DNA of 29,910 bases from a virus (Duplodnaviria > Heunggongvirae > Uroviricota > Caudoviricetes), in IMG/VR virus record IMGVR_UViG_3300045988_123188. One strand, 5' to 3'. Of this stretch, positions 9,871-29,788 are shown piece after piece (the stretch's first letter is position 1; the number at the start of each line of letters is the position of its first letter). The notes beneath the pieces were generated by a model. It ran no database searches. It was not told where the DNA came from and saw nothing but the letters and a program-made list of their open reading frames with translations. The position numbers were made by a program, and so were the translations under genes.

Positions 9871-9888
9871 GTGCGACCACGGTCGCAC
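9871..9888. promoter_or_regulatory. sopC-like palindrome GTGCGACCACGGTCGCAC (putative SopB/ParB centromere site), ~25 bp upstream of the 286-aa gene start
   Basis: 8-bp inverted repeats around a 2-bp AC core; one of five near-identical copies; resembles the F sopC motif TGGGACCACGGTCCCA as I recall it. Confidence 0.6.
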
Positions 9889-10090: not shown

Positions 10091-10108
10091 GTGCGACCAC
10101 GGTCGCAA
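10091..10108. promoter_or_regulatory. sopC-like palindrome GTGCGACCACGGTCGCAA
   Basis: Second copy, directly abutting repeat B. Confidence 0.6.
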
Positions 10109-13192: not shown

Positions 13193-13210
13193 GTGCGACC
13201 GTGGTCGCAC
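13193..13210. promoter_or_regulatory. sopC-like palindrome GTGCGACCGTGGTCGCAC (inverted core GT)
   Basis: Third copy, between the small-gene cluster and the late promoter. Confidence 0.6.
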
Positions 13211-19712: not shown

Positions 19713-19938
19713 TTTCTTGTGCGACCACGGTCGCACCCTCTCTGATTTCCAAGTAACGCTTAATCCAAAGATTTTCTATATGCTTATTACCTGGCTGATT
19801 TGATAAATACCAATCGGCAATTACAGACTGCTTATTACTATCTGGTCGTGTCCTGTAACCACAAGTTGGACACCAGATAACATATTCATTTCTTACCCCC
19901 GAATACCTTAATTCTGGCTTCGACGGTTTCCTGAACAT
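19693..19938 (-). CDS. hypothetical zinc-ribbon-like small protein (81 aa, CLCK...CPTCG)
   Basis: Start at internal ATG (MFRKPSKPELRY...). Confidence 0.4.
   Translation of the reverse strand: MFRKPSKPELRYSGVRNEYVIWCPTCGYRTRPDSNKQSVIADWYLSNQPGNKHIENLWIKRYLEIREGATVVAQENENNAI
19719..19736. promoter_or_regulatory. sopC-like palindrome GTGCGACCACGGTCGCAC overlapping the RBS region of the gene at 19712 and the 3' end of the upstream gene
   Basis: Fourth copy. Confidence 0.6.
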
Positions 19939-20656: not shown

Positions 20657-20867
20657 GCTTACGACTCTCCTTAATCGACTGCTTTACCCGCCGAGTTGTA
20701 AAGTCACTCTTCAGCTTATAAGCAGTACGAACTTCAATATCGCTTTGCCGCAATGAAGGAATCTCTCCAGCGGTTAACCATTGGTAAACAGCTCCGGGTG
20801 TTACACCTACCCCTGCCGCTGCTTTTTCTACACTGCCAAAGTGGCGAATAAGTTCTTCTGGTTTCAT
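20646..20867 (-). CDS. Cro-like HTH repressor
   Basis: Internal ATG (MKPEELIRHFGSVEKAAAGVGVTPGAVYQWLTAGEIP...), 73 aa, HTH; divergent from the repressor gene across an operator-bearing AT-rich region. Confidence 0.65.
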   Translation of the reverse strand: MKPEELIRHFGSVEKAAAGVGVTPGAVYQWLTAGEIPSLRQSDIEVRTAYKLKSDFTTRRVKQSIKESRKRGA

Positions 20868-21800: not shown

Positions 21801-24800
21801 ATGACATTAAACGATTTCTATGCGGATCGCTTTGGCAGCGATCCGTTCTCGCTAATTGAAGCAGCACGGGATGAACTAACCGAGCTGGCACAGATGGCTG
21901 GTATCAACTGGCCTGCCTGTTCCGACAACATCCAACTCAACCCTCGCGGGGGGGTTGAGCGTTACTCTTCATACAATAAAACATCTCCAGAAGCTCTCGA
22001 AAAGAGCCTGAAAGGACGCGTAGAAATTTACTCCCGGCTGGAACACAGCAAAGGGATTGATTACCCGTTCATTAACTTCGTCCATAAAGGCAGCGATGCT
22101 GGCTCATGGAGCGGTTTCTCCTTCCTGTTTTCTGAATATCGCCGTGAGCAACAACGGAATAATGCGACCGTGGTCGCACAACCGGAAGAAGAACGGGAAA
22201 GAATAGAACGTCAGGCCGAAGCACGTCGTCGCCGTGAAGAACAAAAACGAATTAATGACCTGAAAAACAACCAAATGGACCATGAACGTTTGCTGGGATG
22301 GCTGGCATTCCACAGCGCGTGGGAACATGCTCCGGCTGAAGACGGCTCATGGCCATATGCGATTAAAAAAGGTATTCGTGACGTTTTTAGTTCATGTGAT
22401 GTGCGTCGCGTGACCAGTCACGACAGTGCGAAATGGAGTCGGGGACCAACCACATATATGGCTATCCCTCTGGCTCACCTGGACGGTCGTTACGATGGTC
22501 GTATTGTGGGTTGGCAGCGAATCGACAAACAAGGTGGGAAATACCAGACCAGCGCAGTAACCAGCGGCGATTTCGTCGGTGCCTGCTTTGTTATCGGTGA
22601 GCTGAAAGGGGCGCAAAACATCGCTGTTACAGAAGGTTTTGCTACTGGTGCATCCATCTGGCTTGCCACGAAAAAAGATAAACGCTTTGACGCTGTGGTT
22701 GTCGCTGTATCCGCTAACAACATGGTTCATGTTGTGGAACAACTGGTAAACATGTACCCGGCGGTAAAAATCACCTGCGCACTGGATAATGACCGGAAAT
22801 CTGCCACAGAAGGAAAAGGGAATACCGGCCTGCGGACTGGCTATGAAATCTTATCGAAATTCAACGATGTCCGCTGCGTCTATCCAACTTTTGAAGACGA
22901 TCCGCAAATGGAGTGCAGTGACTTCAACGACCTGCACAAACTACGTGGACTTCGTGAAACAGCACGTCAACTATTTGCAACAGCAAACCGCCTGAAAACC
23001 GGTACTGATTTGCTATCTCTGACGCTCAACCGCCTGAAGACAATTAAGCGGGATAACCGTCGTACTTTTGCCAAAGAGCTGCTGAGAGCGGTGGATATTG
23101 GCATGCTAACCTGCCCGGTTCCTAACAGTCCGTCAGATTTATTTAACATGTTCTGCATCGTTCTGCGTGAAATGGGACTGGAAAATATCTATCGCGCTAC
23201 GGTAAAAGACCACATTGCCCGTCGCCTGAATAAAAAGTGCCGTATTGCCCAGGCTCCGCGCTCTTTCAGCGAACGCATAACTGATCCCAATAAACGCCCT
23301 CAACATATCACCTATAAGCGTTTTGAAACTTCGGTAATGACCGATGATCTCCTGAAGTACGTGCAATCACTACAGGGGATAGTCATCGTCCGTGCTGGTA
23401 TGGGTTCCGGCAAATCTACTGGATTGTTACGACCGTTAATGCATAGCTCAGAACGTGGTATCTCTGTTGCTCACCGTGTCTCCCTTATTGGTGGCCTGTG
23501 GGAAATGATGACAGAAGGAAAAGGTGTAAAAGCCGATATCCTGCACTATCAGGACCCTGGCTATCAGGAAATGGCTCCATACGCCAGTAAACTGACCATC
23601 TGCATAAACTCGATTGTTAAAAACTGCTGGCAACCGTTGATGCGCCAGCACGACTATTTTGGCTTTGACGAGGCCACACAAGGGCTACGTGCCGTTCTTT
23701 CCGGTCGGGCTATGGAAAACCCAGTGGCTGTATTCAATACGCTAATTGACGCGCTGGCCAGAACGGAACAACACCCAATAATGGTGGATGCTGATGCGAA
23801 CGATCTGCTGGTTGACCTGGCTGAACTGGCTATGAAACGCCGTGAAGAACTAGGTTTACCGGCATGGCTGCAGATCCACGTAATTGAATTACCTGTTGAT
23901 GTTCGCAACCGCGAAACAGGTGAGCCAATCCGGGTTTTTTATACAGAAAAAGATCGCATCATGACCGAGGTGGTGAAAGCTGTATCGGATGGCGAAAAAA
24001 TCATGTTGGCCACCGACAGCTCCACCTTTGCAGAAGATGTGACAGCCACCCTGAGAATGCATTTTCCTGGTAAGAAATTTCTGTGTGTAAACCAGAAAAA
24101 CAAACCAGAGCCAGAAGTTGAAGCATTTACCAATCAACCGAAAAAGATGGTCAAAAAATACGACGGCCTGATTTATAGCCCGTCTATTTCATCCGGCGTG
24201 TCGATTGAGCAAAAACATTTTGACCGTCATTTCGGCATGTTCTGTGGTGAAGTTGTACCCAGCGACGCAGTGCAAATGCTACGCCGCGACCGTACAGCAA
24301 AAGAATTTATTATCGGCTTTGATAAAGCTCGTGCAAAACGTGAAACTGACCCGCAAAAAATAGAACGAGCATTCGCCCAGGCATTGCTTGCTACCGCAGG
24401 TATGAACGGTGAACTTACGGATGTCGTTTTCGATGGCGACCGTATATCAATGGGGGTGGCCAATACCGACTTTACCAGGATGAAAATTAAAGCAGCCGCA
24501 ATTGAAGCGACTGCGCGTAACGACTACGCCAGCAACATGATCTGCATCATGCACAGCGACGGTTATAAGGTATCACCGCTGGCCACCGATTATGCTGCGA
24601 ATGATATCGGTAAAGATCTGCGTAAAGAAGCGCGGGATATTGTGTGGGAACAGACACTGGATCTGCACCTCAATACAGAAACTCCACAAGAATCAGAGCG
24701 TGAAAAACTGCTAAAAAAACGCGCGCTGACGCTTGAAGAACAGGCAAAACTTGTCCGCTGGGATATTGAAAACGAACTGAAACTACCGGTTGAAGAAGGC

Positions 24801-25796
24801 ACGCTGAAATTCTATTTCGATGGTGCTCGAGACAAAGTTCGCCGCTATGAAACAATGCTTTTAGATGAGGTAACAGCTCGTCGTTACGACCGGGAAGAAG
24901 CAGCCATCAATTTTACCTACGCATACCGTCAGGCGGGACAGTGGCAATATTTTGTAGTGACCGCGATGACTCGCGAGCAGGCTGATGATGTCTTTAAAAC
25001 TAAATTCCCTGGAATAATCGATCACAAGGTAAAAGCTACTCCTACTGTTGAAGTCGGGGCGCGCGGTTTCTATGCGCTTAAATCAGCAACTCTCCGGCAG
25101 TACTTTATCGACTGCGGTATCAACCCTGAGACTATGACCGGCGAGGCGACTCAGGAGCGTCTCAAATTCGCTCGAGATAACCTCATGACAGCCGAACGCC
25201 GTGACCTGTTGAATAACGTTCTGCACATTGGTGGTTTTATGACGCCAAAAGGGAAGCCTAAAGTGCCGGAAGCGTTGTTTAAAAACATTTGCGACTCTCT
25301 TGGCCTTAAAACAGGTAAACGTCGCGGCAGAGACGGCGATAAGCGTCCAACCTTGCGTTTTGTTGAGCCTGAATCAGCGGCATTTATGCTGGATATTCTT
25401 GTTCAGCGTCAGAAAGATGGCCTAACCCTAAAAACGCGTAAAGCCGAGAAGACAGCCATCGAAATGGATCGCGATTTGGATCTCAATATATATATGGATG
25501 ATAAAACGCGATCCACAAACGAGCAGGTTCAAAACGCCCCTCATTCAGTAATTTCTGAGGCTTTGGCCGTGTTGCCAGTGGCTGTACCTGAGTCCTGGGC
25601 GATGAGTGCGCTTTCCAGTGAGGAGTTGGCCACTATGTCATCATGGTCATCAGCCAGCATAGCTATGACGTTTGCATCTCTGTACCTCACAGAGTTCATG
25701 GATCACCTTTCCAGCAATGAGCTGCGGCGGTTACGTGAATACATTACGGGGAATAGCTCATGCAGCTACGAAGAGCAGGGCGCTTTCTTTGGGTAA
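21801..25796 (+). CDS. repA: replication protein RepA, multidomain primase-helicase (N15 RepA-like)
   Basis: 1331 aa; Toprim/primase-like segment (NIAVTEGFATGASIW...TCALDNDRKSATEGKGNTG), Walker A GMGSGKST, Walker B-like FGFDEA; size and architecture match my recollection of N15 RepA (~1320 aa). Confidence 0.8.
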   Translation: MTLNDFYADRFGSDPFSLIEAARDELTELAQMAGINWPACSDNIQLNPRGGVERYSSYNKTSPEALEKSLKGRVEIYSRLEHSKGIDYPFINFVHKGSDAGSWSGFSFLFSEYRREQQRNNATVVAQPEEERERIERQAEARRRREEQKRINDLKNNQMDHERLLGWLAFHSAWEHAPAEDGSWPYAIKKGIRDVFSSCDVRRVTSHDSAKWSRGPTTYMAIPLAHLDGRYDGRIVGWQRIDKQGGKYQTSAVTSGDFVGACFVIGELKGAQNIAVTEGFATGASIWLATKKDKRFDAVVVAVSANNMVHVVEQLVNMYPAVKITCALDNDRKSATEGKGNTGLRTGYEILSKFNDVRCVYPTFEDDPQMECSDFNDLHKLRGLRETARQLFATANRLKTGTDLLSLTLNRLKTIKRDNRRTFAKELLRAVDIGMLTCPVPNSPSDLFNMFCIVLREMGLENIYRATVKDHIARRLNKKCRIAQAPRSFSERITDPNKRPQHITYKRFETSVMTDDLLKYVQSLQGIVIVRAGMGSGKSTGLLRPLMHSSERGISVAHRVSLIGGLWEMMTEGKGVKADILHYQDPGYQEMAPYASKLTICINSIVKNCWQPLMRQHDYFGFDEATQGLRAVLSGRAMENPVAVFNTLIDALARTEQHPIMVDADANDLLVDLAELAMKRREELGLPAWLQIHVIELPVDVRNRETGEPIRVFYTEKDRIMTEVVKAVSDGEKIMLATDSSTFAEDVTATLRMHFPGKKFLCVNQKNKPEPEVEAFTNQPKKMVKKYDGLIYSPSISSGVSIEQKHFDRHFGMFCGEVVPSDAVQMLRRDRTAKEFIIGFDKARAKRETDPQKIERAFAQALLATAGMNGELTDVVFDGDRISMGVANTDFTRMKIKAAAIEATARNDYASNMICIMHSDGYKVSPLATDYAANDIGKDLRKEARDIVWEQTLDLHLNTETPQESEREKLLKKRALTLEEQAKLVRWDIENELKLPVEEGTLKFYFDGARDKVRRYETMLLDEVTARRYDREEAAINFTYAYRQAGQWQYFVVTAMTREQADDVFKTKFPGIIDHKVKATPTVEVGARGFYALKSATLRQYFIDCGINPETMTGEATQERLKFARDNLMTAERRDLLNNVLHIGGFMTPKGKPKVPEALFKNICDSLGLKTGKRRGRDGDKRPTLRFVEPESAAFMLDILVQRQKDGLTLKTRKAEKTAIEMDRDLDLNIYMDDKTRSTNEQVQNAPHSVISEALAVLPVAVPESWAMSALSSEELATMSSWSSASIAMTFASLYLTEFMDHLSSNELRRLREYITGNSSCSYEEQGAFFG
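22163..22178. promoter_or_regulatory. sopC-like palindrome TGCGACCGTGGTCGCA embedded in repA coding sequence (encodes NATVVAQ)
   Basis: Fifth copy; the only one inside a gene. Confidence 0.55.
25466..25514. other. candidate replication origin inside the 3' part of repA: inverted repeats GGATCGCG/CGCGATCC flanking (AT)5, with three GATC sites
   Basis: Seen in sequence; N15 ori is reported to lie within the 3' region of repA (recall). Confidence 0.35.
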
Positions 25797-26999: not shown

Positions 27000-27110
27000 T
27001 GACGTGCGCGTCGTTTTGACGGTAAAGTTTACTCCGCTACGGTAAATCCCGTAGCCGGGCGTAGGAACCCGAGTAAATGAAGCGCACAACACGCGCCAGC
27101 GTGTTTTTTT
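27000..27110 (+). ncRNA. candidate small antisense regulatory RNA (c4/CA-like) of the anti-repressor locus, ending at an intrinsic terminator
   Basis: Hairpin GCTACGG-TAAATC-CCGTAGC (~27036-27055), terminator AACACGC-GCCA-GCGTGTT + T7 (~27088-27110); 7-nt blocks CGGTAAA and GTAGGAA are complementary to TTTACCG and TTCCTAC ~130 bp downstream in the icd leader (~27181-27200). Confidence 0.3.
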
Positions 27111-27273
27111 GTGTGTAAAATCTGCGTACACCAAATTTATGGTGGCTCAGATGGGGCAGCTTTTAGCTGGCCGGTTTCTTCGTTTACCGGTATTCCTACC
27201 CCCGTCTGGGCTACCGCCATATAGAGCGTAGGAACTCTGGTGGTAGCACGACCAATTAAACGGAGTGCATACC

Positions 27274-27839: not shown

Positions 27840-27865
27840 AAGGCACCGATAATTCGGTGCCTTTA
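27840..27865. terminator. hairpin AAGGCACCG-ATAATT-CGGTGCCTT between converging ant operon and telN
   Basis: Perfect 9-bp stem seen in sequence; T-rich flank is modest. Confidence 0.4.
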
Positions 27866-27874
27866 CCGTATGCT

Positions 27875-29788
27875 TTATCCGAAATATGTCAGCCATGCTA
27901 ACTGCATTGCTGATATAGGGCTGTTTGCACTGCCGGACCAAGCATAATTCTGGCCATTATAATGAAACTCAACAACGTATGAGCCATCACCAATATTTCT
28001 CACAGGCTTAAATACCGGCTTAGATACAGGTGAAGAAGGCGCGGGCGGTTGCTGTTCTTCTACGCTCTCTTCCTCTTCCTCTTCCTCTTCCTCTTCCTCT
28101 TCCTCTATCTCAATTTCGTCGTCATCCAGATCGTCATCCTCTGATAATTCATCCGTCTGTTCAGGTATTGCTTCCAGCTCTTCTTCGTCAGGCATAACGA
28201 TTTCTGGAGAATCTATTTTCAGCTGCCATTGTCCATTTTCGCCAACAAATTGCCCCAGAGCATCAGCAGCAAATTCCAGGTATCGACTAATCATTGTAGG
28301 GCTAAATTTGAATGCTCTTAGAGTGCTGTTCGTGATTTTTATAGAGGGGTCATGCTCTACCAGCTGCTTAACTGTGTTATGCAGACGAACCCCGGCATCT
28401 CCTCTGGCGAATCCTGGCATTTCGTCATCAAGCTGCTGCAATGCTTCCAGCCTGGTATTTTCGTTTCCAGTATTTGGCCTCCATGTCTTTGAGAAGTTGG
28501 CCAGCTTGAATTGCTTATAGTGTAATTGAGTGTTTTCATCGTCATGGCCTAAAATTTCCATAAAGAAAACATCCTCATCTACGTTTTTCCAACGAGGATC
28601 TACGCGGAAAAACATTTCATACGCAATACGGGCATAAATAGCACGACTATCTTTATAAACACGGCGGTCATCTTTGAAAAATGATTTAACCCACGGGTTA
28701 AAAGCCTTTGCTAATATGGCATTAATCCGTCCGTTTTCAGAGCGTGTGTCGTTATCTCCATAACCTTTAACGACATCATCAAAATCAGATGCTGCTGGGC
28801 ATGAGCGAAGTACATTTATTAAATAAACAAATGTTTTTGCTTCGCATAATGTATATATTTTTCTGGTTATATCATCAGAAGTTCTTTTTTTTGCTTGGCC
28901 TAAAAAATCAACGGTATACTTACCAGAAACAGTAAATGTACCTTGATACATAATCTCAATCATTCGTCTTCCTGACAATGCAGCAAGTGCAAATGCCAAA
29001 GGAGCCATACCTGAACGAGTGTTTAGATTATTTAATGTAGCAGGGCTATTTATAATATCGTAAATAGCTTGCATATATTTAGGGTAATCAATGACCACCA
29101 CGTTACGTTTCTTATTGTGCAGAACGTCCGCCCATCGTTGCTGGATAGATGCGCGTTCGGCAGGGCTTAGTTGAAGATGATAGAGAATCTCATGGTTAAC
29201 TTTTAGCTGATTCAACTCCTCAAGTAAGGCAGATCCTTGCTGTAGTAATTTATATAAATAATCGCGCTTATCTTTCCAGTTATCGCTAGTTAAATCAGAT
29301 ATGGCGAATTGCCACTCTTTATATTTATTTGATAATTTTAATAACTTATTATGACTTTTGTTATCACCAATTCTGATATTAGATAAATCTTCTGATAAAG
29401 GGAGAATTAATTTTAATTTTGCCTGTAAAGCTGACATTCTCTGGCGAATATCGGCAGCAGGTAGAGAAAGCCATGACAATAGCTCCTCATTATATAAAGG
29501 ATACTTTTCAGATAGGCGATGTATATTTTTTTCAAAGCTATGATGAAGTTTATCATCAAACCGTTTTCTGGCCCTGCTCATATAGGCATTGAAGGTGTTG
29601 GCTGTAATTCTTTTTTCTAATCCTTTCCCCCTAAACTTTCGCTTATCATTAAATAATGCATTTTTAAATTTTAATGCAACAGCCTTTATTTTTTTTGTTT
29701 TTTCCCCTTGAGGACGGTCAGAGTTATCTATTGACTCAACATCGCTAACAAGTGAGTTTATTAATTCACCGATTTTTACTTTGCTCAT
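27875..29788 (-). CDS. telN: protelomerase TelN (telomere resolvase)
   Basis: 637 aa; MSKVKIGELINSLV...KRITANTFNAYMSRARKRFDDKLHHSF..., YLYKLLQQGSALLEELNQLKVNHEILYHLQLSPAERASIQQRWADVL, NTRSGMAPLAFALAALSGRRMIEIM, RINAILAKAFNPWVKSF...RVYKDSRAIYARIAYEMFF (catalytic Tyr region) match N15 TelN as recalled; SD GGAGAGGAAA. Confidence 0.9.
   Translation of the reverse strand: MSKVKIGELINSLVSDVESIDNSDRPQGEKTKKIKAVALKFKNALFNDKRKFRGKGLEKRITANTFNAYMSRARKRFDDKLHHSFEKNIHRLSEKYPLYNEELLSWLSLPAADIRQRMSALQAKLKLILPLSEDLSNIRIGDNKSHNKLLKLSNKYKEWQFAISDLTSDNWKDKRDYLYKLLQQGSALLEELNQLKVNHEILYHLQLSPAERASIQQRWADVLHNKKRNVVVIDYPKYMQAIYDIINSPATLNNLNTRSGMAPLAFALAALSGRRMIEIMYQGTFTVSGKYTVDFLGQAKKRTSDDITRKIYTLCEAKTFVYLINVLRSCPAASDFDDVVKGYGDNDTRSENGRINAILAKAFNPWVKSFFKDDRRVYKDSRAIYARIAYEMFFRVDPRWKNVDEDVFFMEILGHDDENTQLHYKQFKLANFSKTWRPNTGNENTRLEALQQLDDEMPGFARGDAGVRLHNTVKQLVEHDPSIKITNSTLRAFKFSPTMISRYLEFAADALGQFVGENGQWQLKIDSPEIVMPDEEELEAIPEQTDELSEDDDLDDDEIEIEEEEEEEEEEEEESVEEQQPPAPSSPVSKPVFKPVRNIGDGSYVVEFHYNGQNYAWSGSANSPISAMQLAWLTYFG
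28067..28102. repeat. perfect hexanucleotide microsatellite (CTCTTC)6 inside telN, encoding a poly-Glu run
   Basis: Six tandem perfect units on the plus strand, equal to (GAAGAG)6 on the coding strand, giving EIEEEEEEEEEEEEESVEE. Confidence 0.85.

Follow-up and report, generated by a model that had tools for sequence, protein, structure and literature searches.

The question raised by this locus is where a phage-plasmid of the N15 type begins to replicate, and whether its origin could lie within the gene for its own replication initiator. On the evidence of sequence comparison, the stretch of DNA analyzed here (29,910 nt, hereafter the window) is an N15-like linear telomere phage-plasmid. Over the part that holds the candidate, it shared 97% nucleotide identity with Escherichia phage PhiR46_1, 81-84% with YDC107_1, approximately 76% with a Klebsiella group (48ST307 and others) and approximately 66% with N15 and phiKO2, while comparison of the RepA proteins gave 41% identity for PY54 and P840 and 25% for VP882 and phiHAP-1. 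We consider it likely, with a probability of roughly 80%, that a 56-bp segment at 25461-25516 represents the replication origin core of this replicon, lying within the gene that encodes its initiator. The sequence relationships described below indicate that this core, carried by a PhiR46_1-like phage-plasmid, is very probably orthologous to the known intragenic origin of N15 and PY54, and the result is in this respect largely expected.

The repA gene and its surroundings

The candidate core is located in the 3' part of repA, an open reading frame on the + strand (21801..25796) that encodes a multidomain replication initiator of 1331 aa, the last 498 aa of which are 62% identical to N15 gp37. 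RepA matched the Pfam family Herpes_ori_bp at aa 522-674 and the NCBIfam family CyRepA1 at aa 525-1034 (260 bits), and a match to Pfam Toprim_3 at aa 274-383 was weak and below threshold (21.1 bits against a cutoff of 27.2 bits). Single-sequence structure prediction of the RepA C-terminus gave a mean pLDDT of 41, which is too poor to use; in this low-confidence model the coil with the lowest pLDDT comprised query residues 205-247, corresponding to 25416-25544 of the window. The segment of RepA encoded by the candidate origin is weakly conserved and probably unstructured.

Several other features of the window were observed in the course of this analysis. A 16-bp palindrome, TGCGACC(GT/AC)GGTCGCA, is present in five perfect copies (9872-9887, 10092-10107, 13194-13209, 19720-19735 and 22163-22178) compared to 0.14 expected by chance, and the last of these copies lies inside repA. 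By their sequence, the five palindromes look like dispersed partition sites of the N15 type (sopC-like). Downstream of repA, Rfam searches returned an isrK Hfq-binding RNA (27036-27109, + strand, 62.5 bits) and a C4 antisense RNA (27135-27221, + strand, 73.6 bits), both above the gathering score, and these two RNAs presumably belong to an antirepressor or secondary immunity locus. In addition, the C-terminal tail of RepA, comprising approximately the last 30 codons (window ~25700-25796), is a mosaic among relatives. A tail of the type ...LSSNELRRLREYITG is common to the window and 48ST307, and YDC107_1, which is otherwise 88% identical to the window, changes to an N15-type tail (FMDLLS..LLKAF); this change in YDC107_1 suggests a putative recombination junction directly downstream of the candidate origin.

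Anatomy of the candidate core

The original prediction had described, within the repA coding sequence, inverted repeats that flank an (AT)5 tract and contain three GATC sites, and a reading of the sequence against the open reading frame proved this description accurate. The core as delimited here, with limits set by the invariant columns of a codon alignment of five lineages, lies at 92-93% of the length of repA and 280 nt upstream of the stop codon, and the sequence from 25460 to 25520 reads CGAAATGGATCGCGATTTGGATCTCAATATATATATGGATGATAAAACGCGATCCACAAAC. Its left arm, TGGATCGCGATTT, is found at 25465..25477 on the + strand and includes the GATC at 25467-25470, and its right arm, AAAACGCGATCCA (reverse complement TGGATCGCGTTTT), is found at 25503..25515 on the - strand and includes the GATC at 25510-25513. 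These 13-nt arms are complementary at 12 of their 13 positions, are 25 nt apart and contain the 8-nt cores GGATCGCG (25466-25473) and CGCGATCC (25507-25514). The spacer between them (25478..25502) consists of 72% A+T, carries the (AT)5 tract at 25486-25495 and is the proposed unwinding element. The TGGATCNC motif recurs in direct orientation at 25477..25484 (TGGATCTC, + strand), where this second copy starts 12 bp after the first and includes the GATC at 25479-25482. All three GATC sites of the core (25467, 25479 and 25510) are thus located within repA, and three of the six occurrences of the TGGATCNC motif in the 30 kb are found in the core. The second direct copy is the homologue of the second repeat annotated in N15 and is missing in YDC107_1 and pS142-3; since it has been lost in these two relatives, it is probably dispensable. 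Read as sequence, the anatomy of the core is that of an origin, with two inverted candidate initiator half-sites arranged around an easily melted AT-rich spacer and with one extra direct putative half-site in both the window core and N15.

Searches for elements known from other replication and regulatory regions gave largely negative results. No DnaA box (TTATNCACA) was found at one mismatch or less in 25400-25560, and a match with two mismatches, CGATCCACA, is not kept in N15. Likewise, a scan with the IHF consensus identified no site that is present or conserved at the core, and tandem direct iterons (at least three, of about 17-22 bp) were not found, the core having two direct 8-bp copies of TGGATCNC and one inverted copy. 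Scans of the core for promoters and for T-run terminators, as well as an Rfam search, returned no promoter, terminator or family at this position, and two terminator-like matches at 25374-25392 were at chance level. A further GATC at 25701, together with TGGATCAC at 25699, was considered as part of the element and rejected, as neither is conserved in relatives. Cumulative GC skew was also discarded as an origin marker: its minimum at 20837, away from the core, tracks a switch in gene orientation and is uninformative on the origin.

Within the window, GATC is depleted, with 69 sites found versus 112.5 ± 9.7 expected from dinucleotide-preserving shuffles. The three sites of the core fall within 47 bp, and no other triple in the window is as tight (the closest to it spans 125 bp), while the remaining 828 nt of the 3' part contain only two more, and the scarcity of GATC over the whole window makes the cluster at the candidate origin stand out. 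Taken by itself, this clustering of GATC does not reach significance (P ~0.26), as a triple of this tightness was obtained in 26% of trials when 69 sites were placed uniformly, and the 8-bp inverted repeat alone is likewise unremarkable. The 13-nt inverted repeat is the best short-range one in the last 1.5 kb of repA, and the AT tract is the least stable duplex of repA at lengths of 13, 20 and 30 bp. The strong evidence against a chance origin of the element is its conservation across relatives, as judged from the sequence comparisons presented below, and not these statistics from within the window.

Conservation among relatives and alternative explanations

The original prediction had pointed to the reported location of the N15 origin inside the 3' part of repA. 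This placement in the 3' part is in line with the repeats annotated in GenBank. The location within repA is documented in the literature, according to which bidirectional replication of N15 begins at an origin inside this gene (PMC4165912; PMC2847241). The GenBank record of N15 repA, U63085, carries only three repeat_region features, each of 11 bp and all at the end of repA as then annotated. Alignment with the N15 region, which had been proposed as a check on the prediction, supported it, since in the codon alignment the candidate core falls exactly on these three repeats. The N15 sequence at the equivalent site is GTGGATCGCGATTTGGATCTAAATATAGATATACATGGTAACCCTCGATCCAAAAC, and GGATC, AATATA and CGATCC are invariant at the core in the codon alignment of the five enterobacterial lineages. 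The homologous coordinates are 30139-30194 in N15 (NC_001901), 34568-34620 in phiKO2 (NC_005857) and 27863-27909 in PY54 (NC_005069), and the equivalent cores of these three phages are each located 232-280 nt upstream of the repA stop codon. The PY54 origin has reportedly been assigned to 212 bp within the 3' portion of repA. The candidate and the N15 and PY54 origins share the same replicon family, the same place (~250-280 nt before the repA stop) and alignable sequence. They differ in detail: the centre is (AT)5 here and ATATAGATATA in N15, the best partner of the right arm is the first left repeat here and the second left repeat in N15, and PY54 shows a fixed arrangement of four GATCs, GATC-N9-GATC-N14-GATC-N8-GATC, compared to the three GATCs of the window core.

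To separate constraint on the DNA from constraint on the protein, full-length repA genes of five enterobacterial lineages (the window, YDC107_1, 48ST307, phiKO2 and N15) and of PY54 were aligned by codon. In the 15 codons beginning at 25458, 11 of 15 third positions were invariant, which is the maximum over all 1364 columns of repA and compares to a gene mean of 0.22, while only 6 of the 15 encoded amino acids were invariant versus a gene mean of 0.67 per column (~10/15). Moreover, for invariant degenerate residues at the core, six of eight codons were identical, as against 24% over the gene as a whole (Fisher P = 0.003). The scan also recovered, as a positive control, 22131-22190, which includes the palindrome TGCGACCGTGGTCGCA at 22163-22178, the homologue of a partition site annotated in phiKO2 repA. 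The second highest peak of third-position invariance, with 9-10 of 15, was found at 23610-23670, where the protein sequence is highly conserved as well. This second stretch shows no obvious repeat, and its peak could be due to constraint on codons or on the protein, or to a further cis site. According to the codon alignment, selection at the core acts on the DNA and not on the protein.

The comparison was extended by adding relatives from PLSDB (222 records by protein, of which five were taken), two genome contigs and 68 IMG/VR loci. This yielded 48 distinct core sequences from E. coli, Klebsiella, Yersinia, Salmonella, Pantoea, Vibrio vulnificus and IMG/VR contigs, with RepA C-terminal identities of 29-100%. 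Every one of the 48 variants has two to five GATCs around a centre of the TATA(G/T)AT type, and the enrichment of GATC relative to the rest of the 3' part reached P values between 3e-6 and 0.03 in the individual lineages. GATC-bearing arms were present in the best core repeat of 16 of 19 representative lineages, and in 15 of those 16 the arms, which are 10-15 nt long and have no more than one mismatch, enclose a spacer of 21-33 nt with 66-78% A+T. In 13 of the 19 lineages, the last 1.2-1.5 kb of repA contains no better short-range inverted repeat. In four of the 19 (L070, L076, L077 and L081), the best repeat under the rule of at most one mismatch is just 7-8 nt long, and six or seven other places in the 3' part outscore it. 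The arm sequences themselves vary from lineage to lineage, reading GATCCAGATC ... GATCTGGATC in Pantoea-like elements and TGATCCACG ... CGTGGATCA in a Vibrio vulnificus plasmid, and in the PY54-like group the frame of four GATCs with their N9, N14 and N8 spacings is rigid while the intervening bases vary. In the PY54 group, two arm pairs are altered on both sides (GATTG/CAATC versus ACTTG/CAAGT), a score reached by 1 of 500 shuffles, and two sequences of the group have mixed arms; this apparent covariation is small and possibly reflects a single evolutionary event.

A search with a 91-bp core query found 213 plasmids in PLSDB, the majority of them from Klebsiella and E. coli, and among the matches listed the core was always located within repA or repA fragments. 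In VP882 and phiHAP-1, whose RepA proteins are distant, no equivalent GATC/AT-rich site was found at the 3' end of repA. Some records contain the region twice. In YDC107_1 the second copy of repA, which is annotated as several CDSs, was considered as a second origin and rejected, as it belongs to an inverted duplicate of the whole region and is probably an assembly artefact caused by read-through of a hairpin telomere. Records in which the entire repA region is present as two inverted copies include L024 (CP025712.1 39150-44759) and IMG/VR contigs with two loci each, namely L035/L036, L058/L060, L052/L066, L048/L072, L069/L086 and L089/L093. These double repA records are probably hairpin-telomere read-through assemblies or head-to-head dimers and not true second origins.

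Three other explanations of the conserved segment were weighed against an origin. The repeats and GATCs might be mere by-products of a conserved peptide (E-V-D-R-D-L-D-L-N-I) and of chance, with no cis element at all, since several GATCs do come from codon pairs for Asp-Arg or Asp-Leu (GAT-C..) and the statistics within the window are weak. However, the peptide is poorly conserved (6/15 versus the average of ~10/15) just where third positions are maximally conserved, and PY54, Pantoea and Vibrio differ in their amino acids and in how the GATCs are read, yet retain the GATC/AT-rich/GATC layout. In addition, the conserved-codon GATC at 25701 lies in a better conserved peptide (FMD) and is not kept in relatives, so that an origin of the element from coding alone appears hardly credible. 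The segment could instead form a DNA or RNA hairpin with a regulatory function unrelated to initiation, such as translation of the RepA C-terminus, expression of the downstream genes, or pausing and attenuation. In line with a hairpin, the core strand folds as single-stranded DNA better than shuffled controls (z = -3.5), and the complementarity of the arms is kept as their sequence changes across lineages. On the other hand, arms of 10-15 nt around an AT-rich loop of 21-33 nt would make only a weak RNA hairpin, the core lacks a T-run terminator, a promoter and an Rfam family, and two PY54-group sequences have mixed arms. Moreover, RNA structure would leave unexplained both the invariance of the palindromic GATCs in otherwise diverging arms and the extra direct TGGATC copy, and we regard a regulatory hairpin as very unlikely.

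A cluster of sites for Dam and SeqA or for another host protein could likewise serve a role other than initiation (in sequestration or attachment to the membrane, in segregation, or as a mark for mismatch repair), with the true origin elsewhere in or near repA. GATC is indeed the most conserved feature of the core, and the GATC spacings of 12 and 31 bp are within the range that would favor SeqA binding. However, an easily melted AT-rich centre with dyad arms is classic origin anatomy, the palindrome of the partition sites, present in five copies, is a different one, and comparable non-coding constraint elsewhere in repA is limited to the partition palindrome and one protein-conserved stretch, which makes a non-initiation role of the cluster unlikely. 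The reading of the segment as the origin core, and with it the original prediction of a candidate origin in the 3' end of repA, is supported by the homology to the N15 repeats, by the third-position constraint and by the GATC/AT-rich/GATC layout that was kept across lineages.

A model for initiation and comparison with known origins

[quoted passage not shown] The (AT)5 or TATA-rich centre would then melt, allowing RepA to be loaded as helicase and to prime both strands. The expected outcome is bidirectional replication of the theta type, after which the protelomerase TelN would resolve the replicated hairpin telomeres. The GATCs of the arms, as Dam targets, would be hemimethylated after passage of the fork and would probably be sequestered by SeqA, or alternatively the binding of RepA might be sensitive to methylation; either sequestration or methylation-sensitive binding could limit re-initiation and thereby keep the copy number low. 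Dam methylation may be read at this origin because the GATCs are fixed while the arms drift and because the hosts are Dam-positive gamma-proteobacteria. A broader proposal, which we put forward tentatively and by analogy, is that origins of the N15 type respond to Dam methylation, either by SeqA sequestration or by a RepA binding that depends on methylation, as at V. cholerae oriCII. Replication of the prophage-plasmid would thereby be coupled to the cell cycle of the host, and arms that are specific to each lineage might then set the specificity between RepA and origin and, as a consequence, define incompatibility groups among the N15-like plasmids that are common in Klebsiella and E. coli.

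In the literature covered by our search, outside of which lie the N15 and PY54 origin-mapping studies, we found no statement of the GATC invariance over 48 variants or of lineage-specific arms that keep their dyad symmetry in most lineages. These two observations together seem to provide a modest but testable lead. For N15-like linear phage-plasmids, a widespread group, the analysis narrows the probable origin to a core of 56 bp and adds a comparative picture of GATC-bearing dyad arms, a TATA-rich centre and invariant GATCs; the system that it describes is not of a new kind. It could be used for annotation and for the design of linear vectors of the N15/pJAZZ type and of compatible variants, and it frames the question of Dam/SeqA control over the copy number of phage-plasmids.

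At E. coli oriC, P1 oriR and Vibrio cholerae oriCII, all of which function in Dam-positive gamma-proteobacteria, GATCs are clustered in and around the unwinding region or the region of initiator binding. The candidate core appears similar in its GATC cluster, which in the sequences compared is conserved among relatives while the flanking bases drift, as would be expected if methylation or SeqA is read there. In contrast to oriC and P1 oriR, it has no DnaA boxes, and its variants contain just two to five GATCs. An origin that lies inside the gene for its own initiator is also known from phage lambda, where gene O contains the origin and initiator-binding repeats adjoin an AT-rich unwinding region. 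Moreover, the lambda origin presumably encodes a linker of the O protein, and the segment of RepA encoded by the candidate origin is likewise poorly conserved as protein and is a coil in the low-confidence model. However, lambda has four tandem 19-bp O-binding repeats, compared to a single dyad with one extra half-site here, and recruits the host DnaB via P, whereas RepA itself carries primase and helicase, the proteins of the two systems being non-homologous. In the latter respect RepA resembles the alpha protein of phage P4, a single primase-helicase-origin-binding protein that acts on short origin repeats. The P4 origin, which is located outside the alpha gene, uses direct octamer iterons and needs a second site, crr, differs from the candidate site of the window, which is intragenic and dyad-symmetric.
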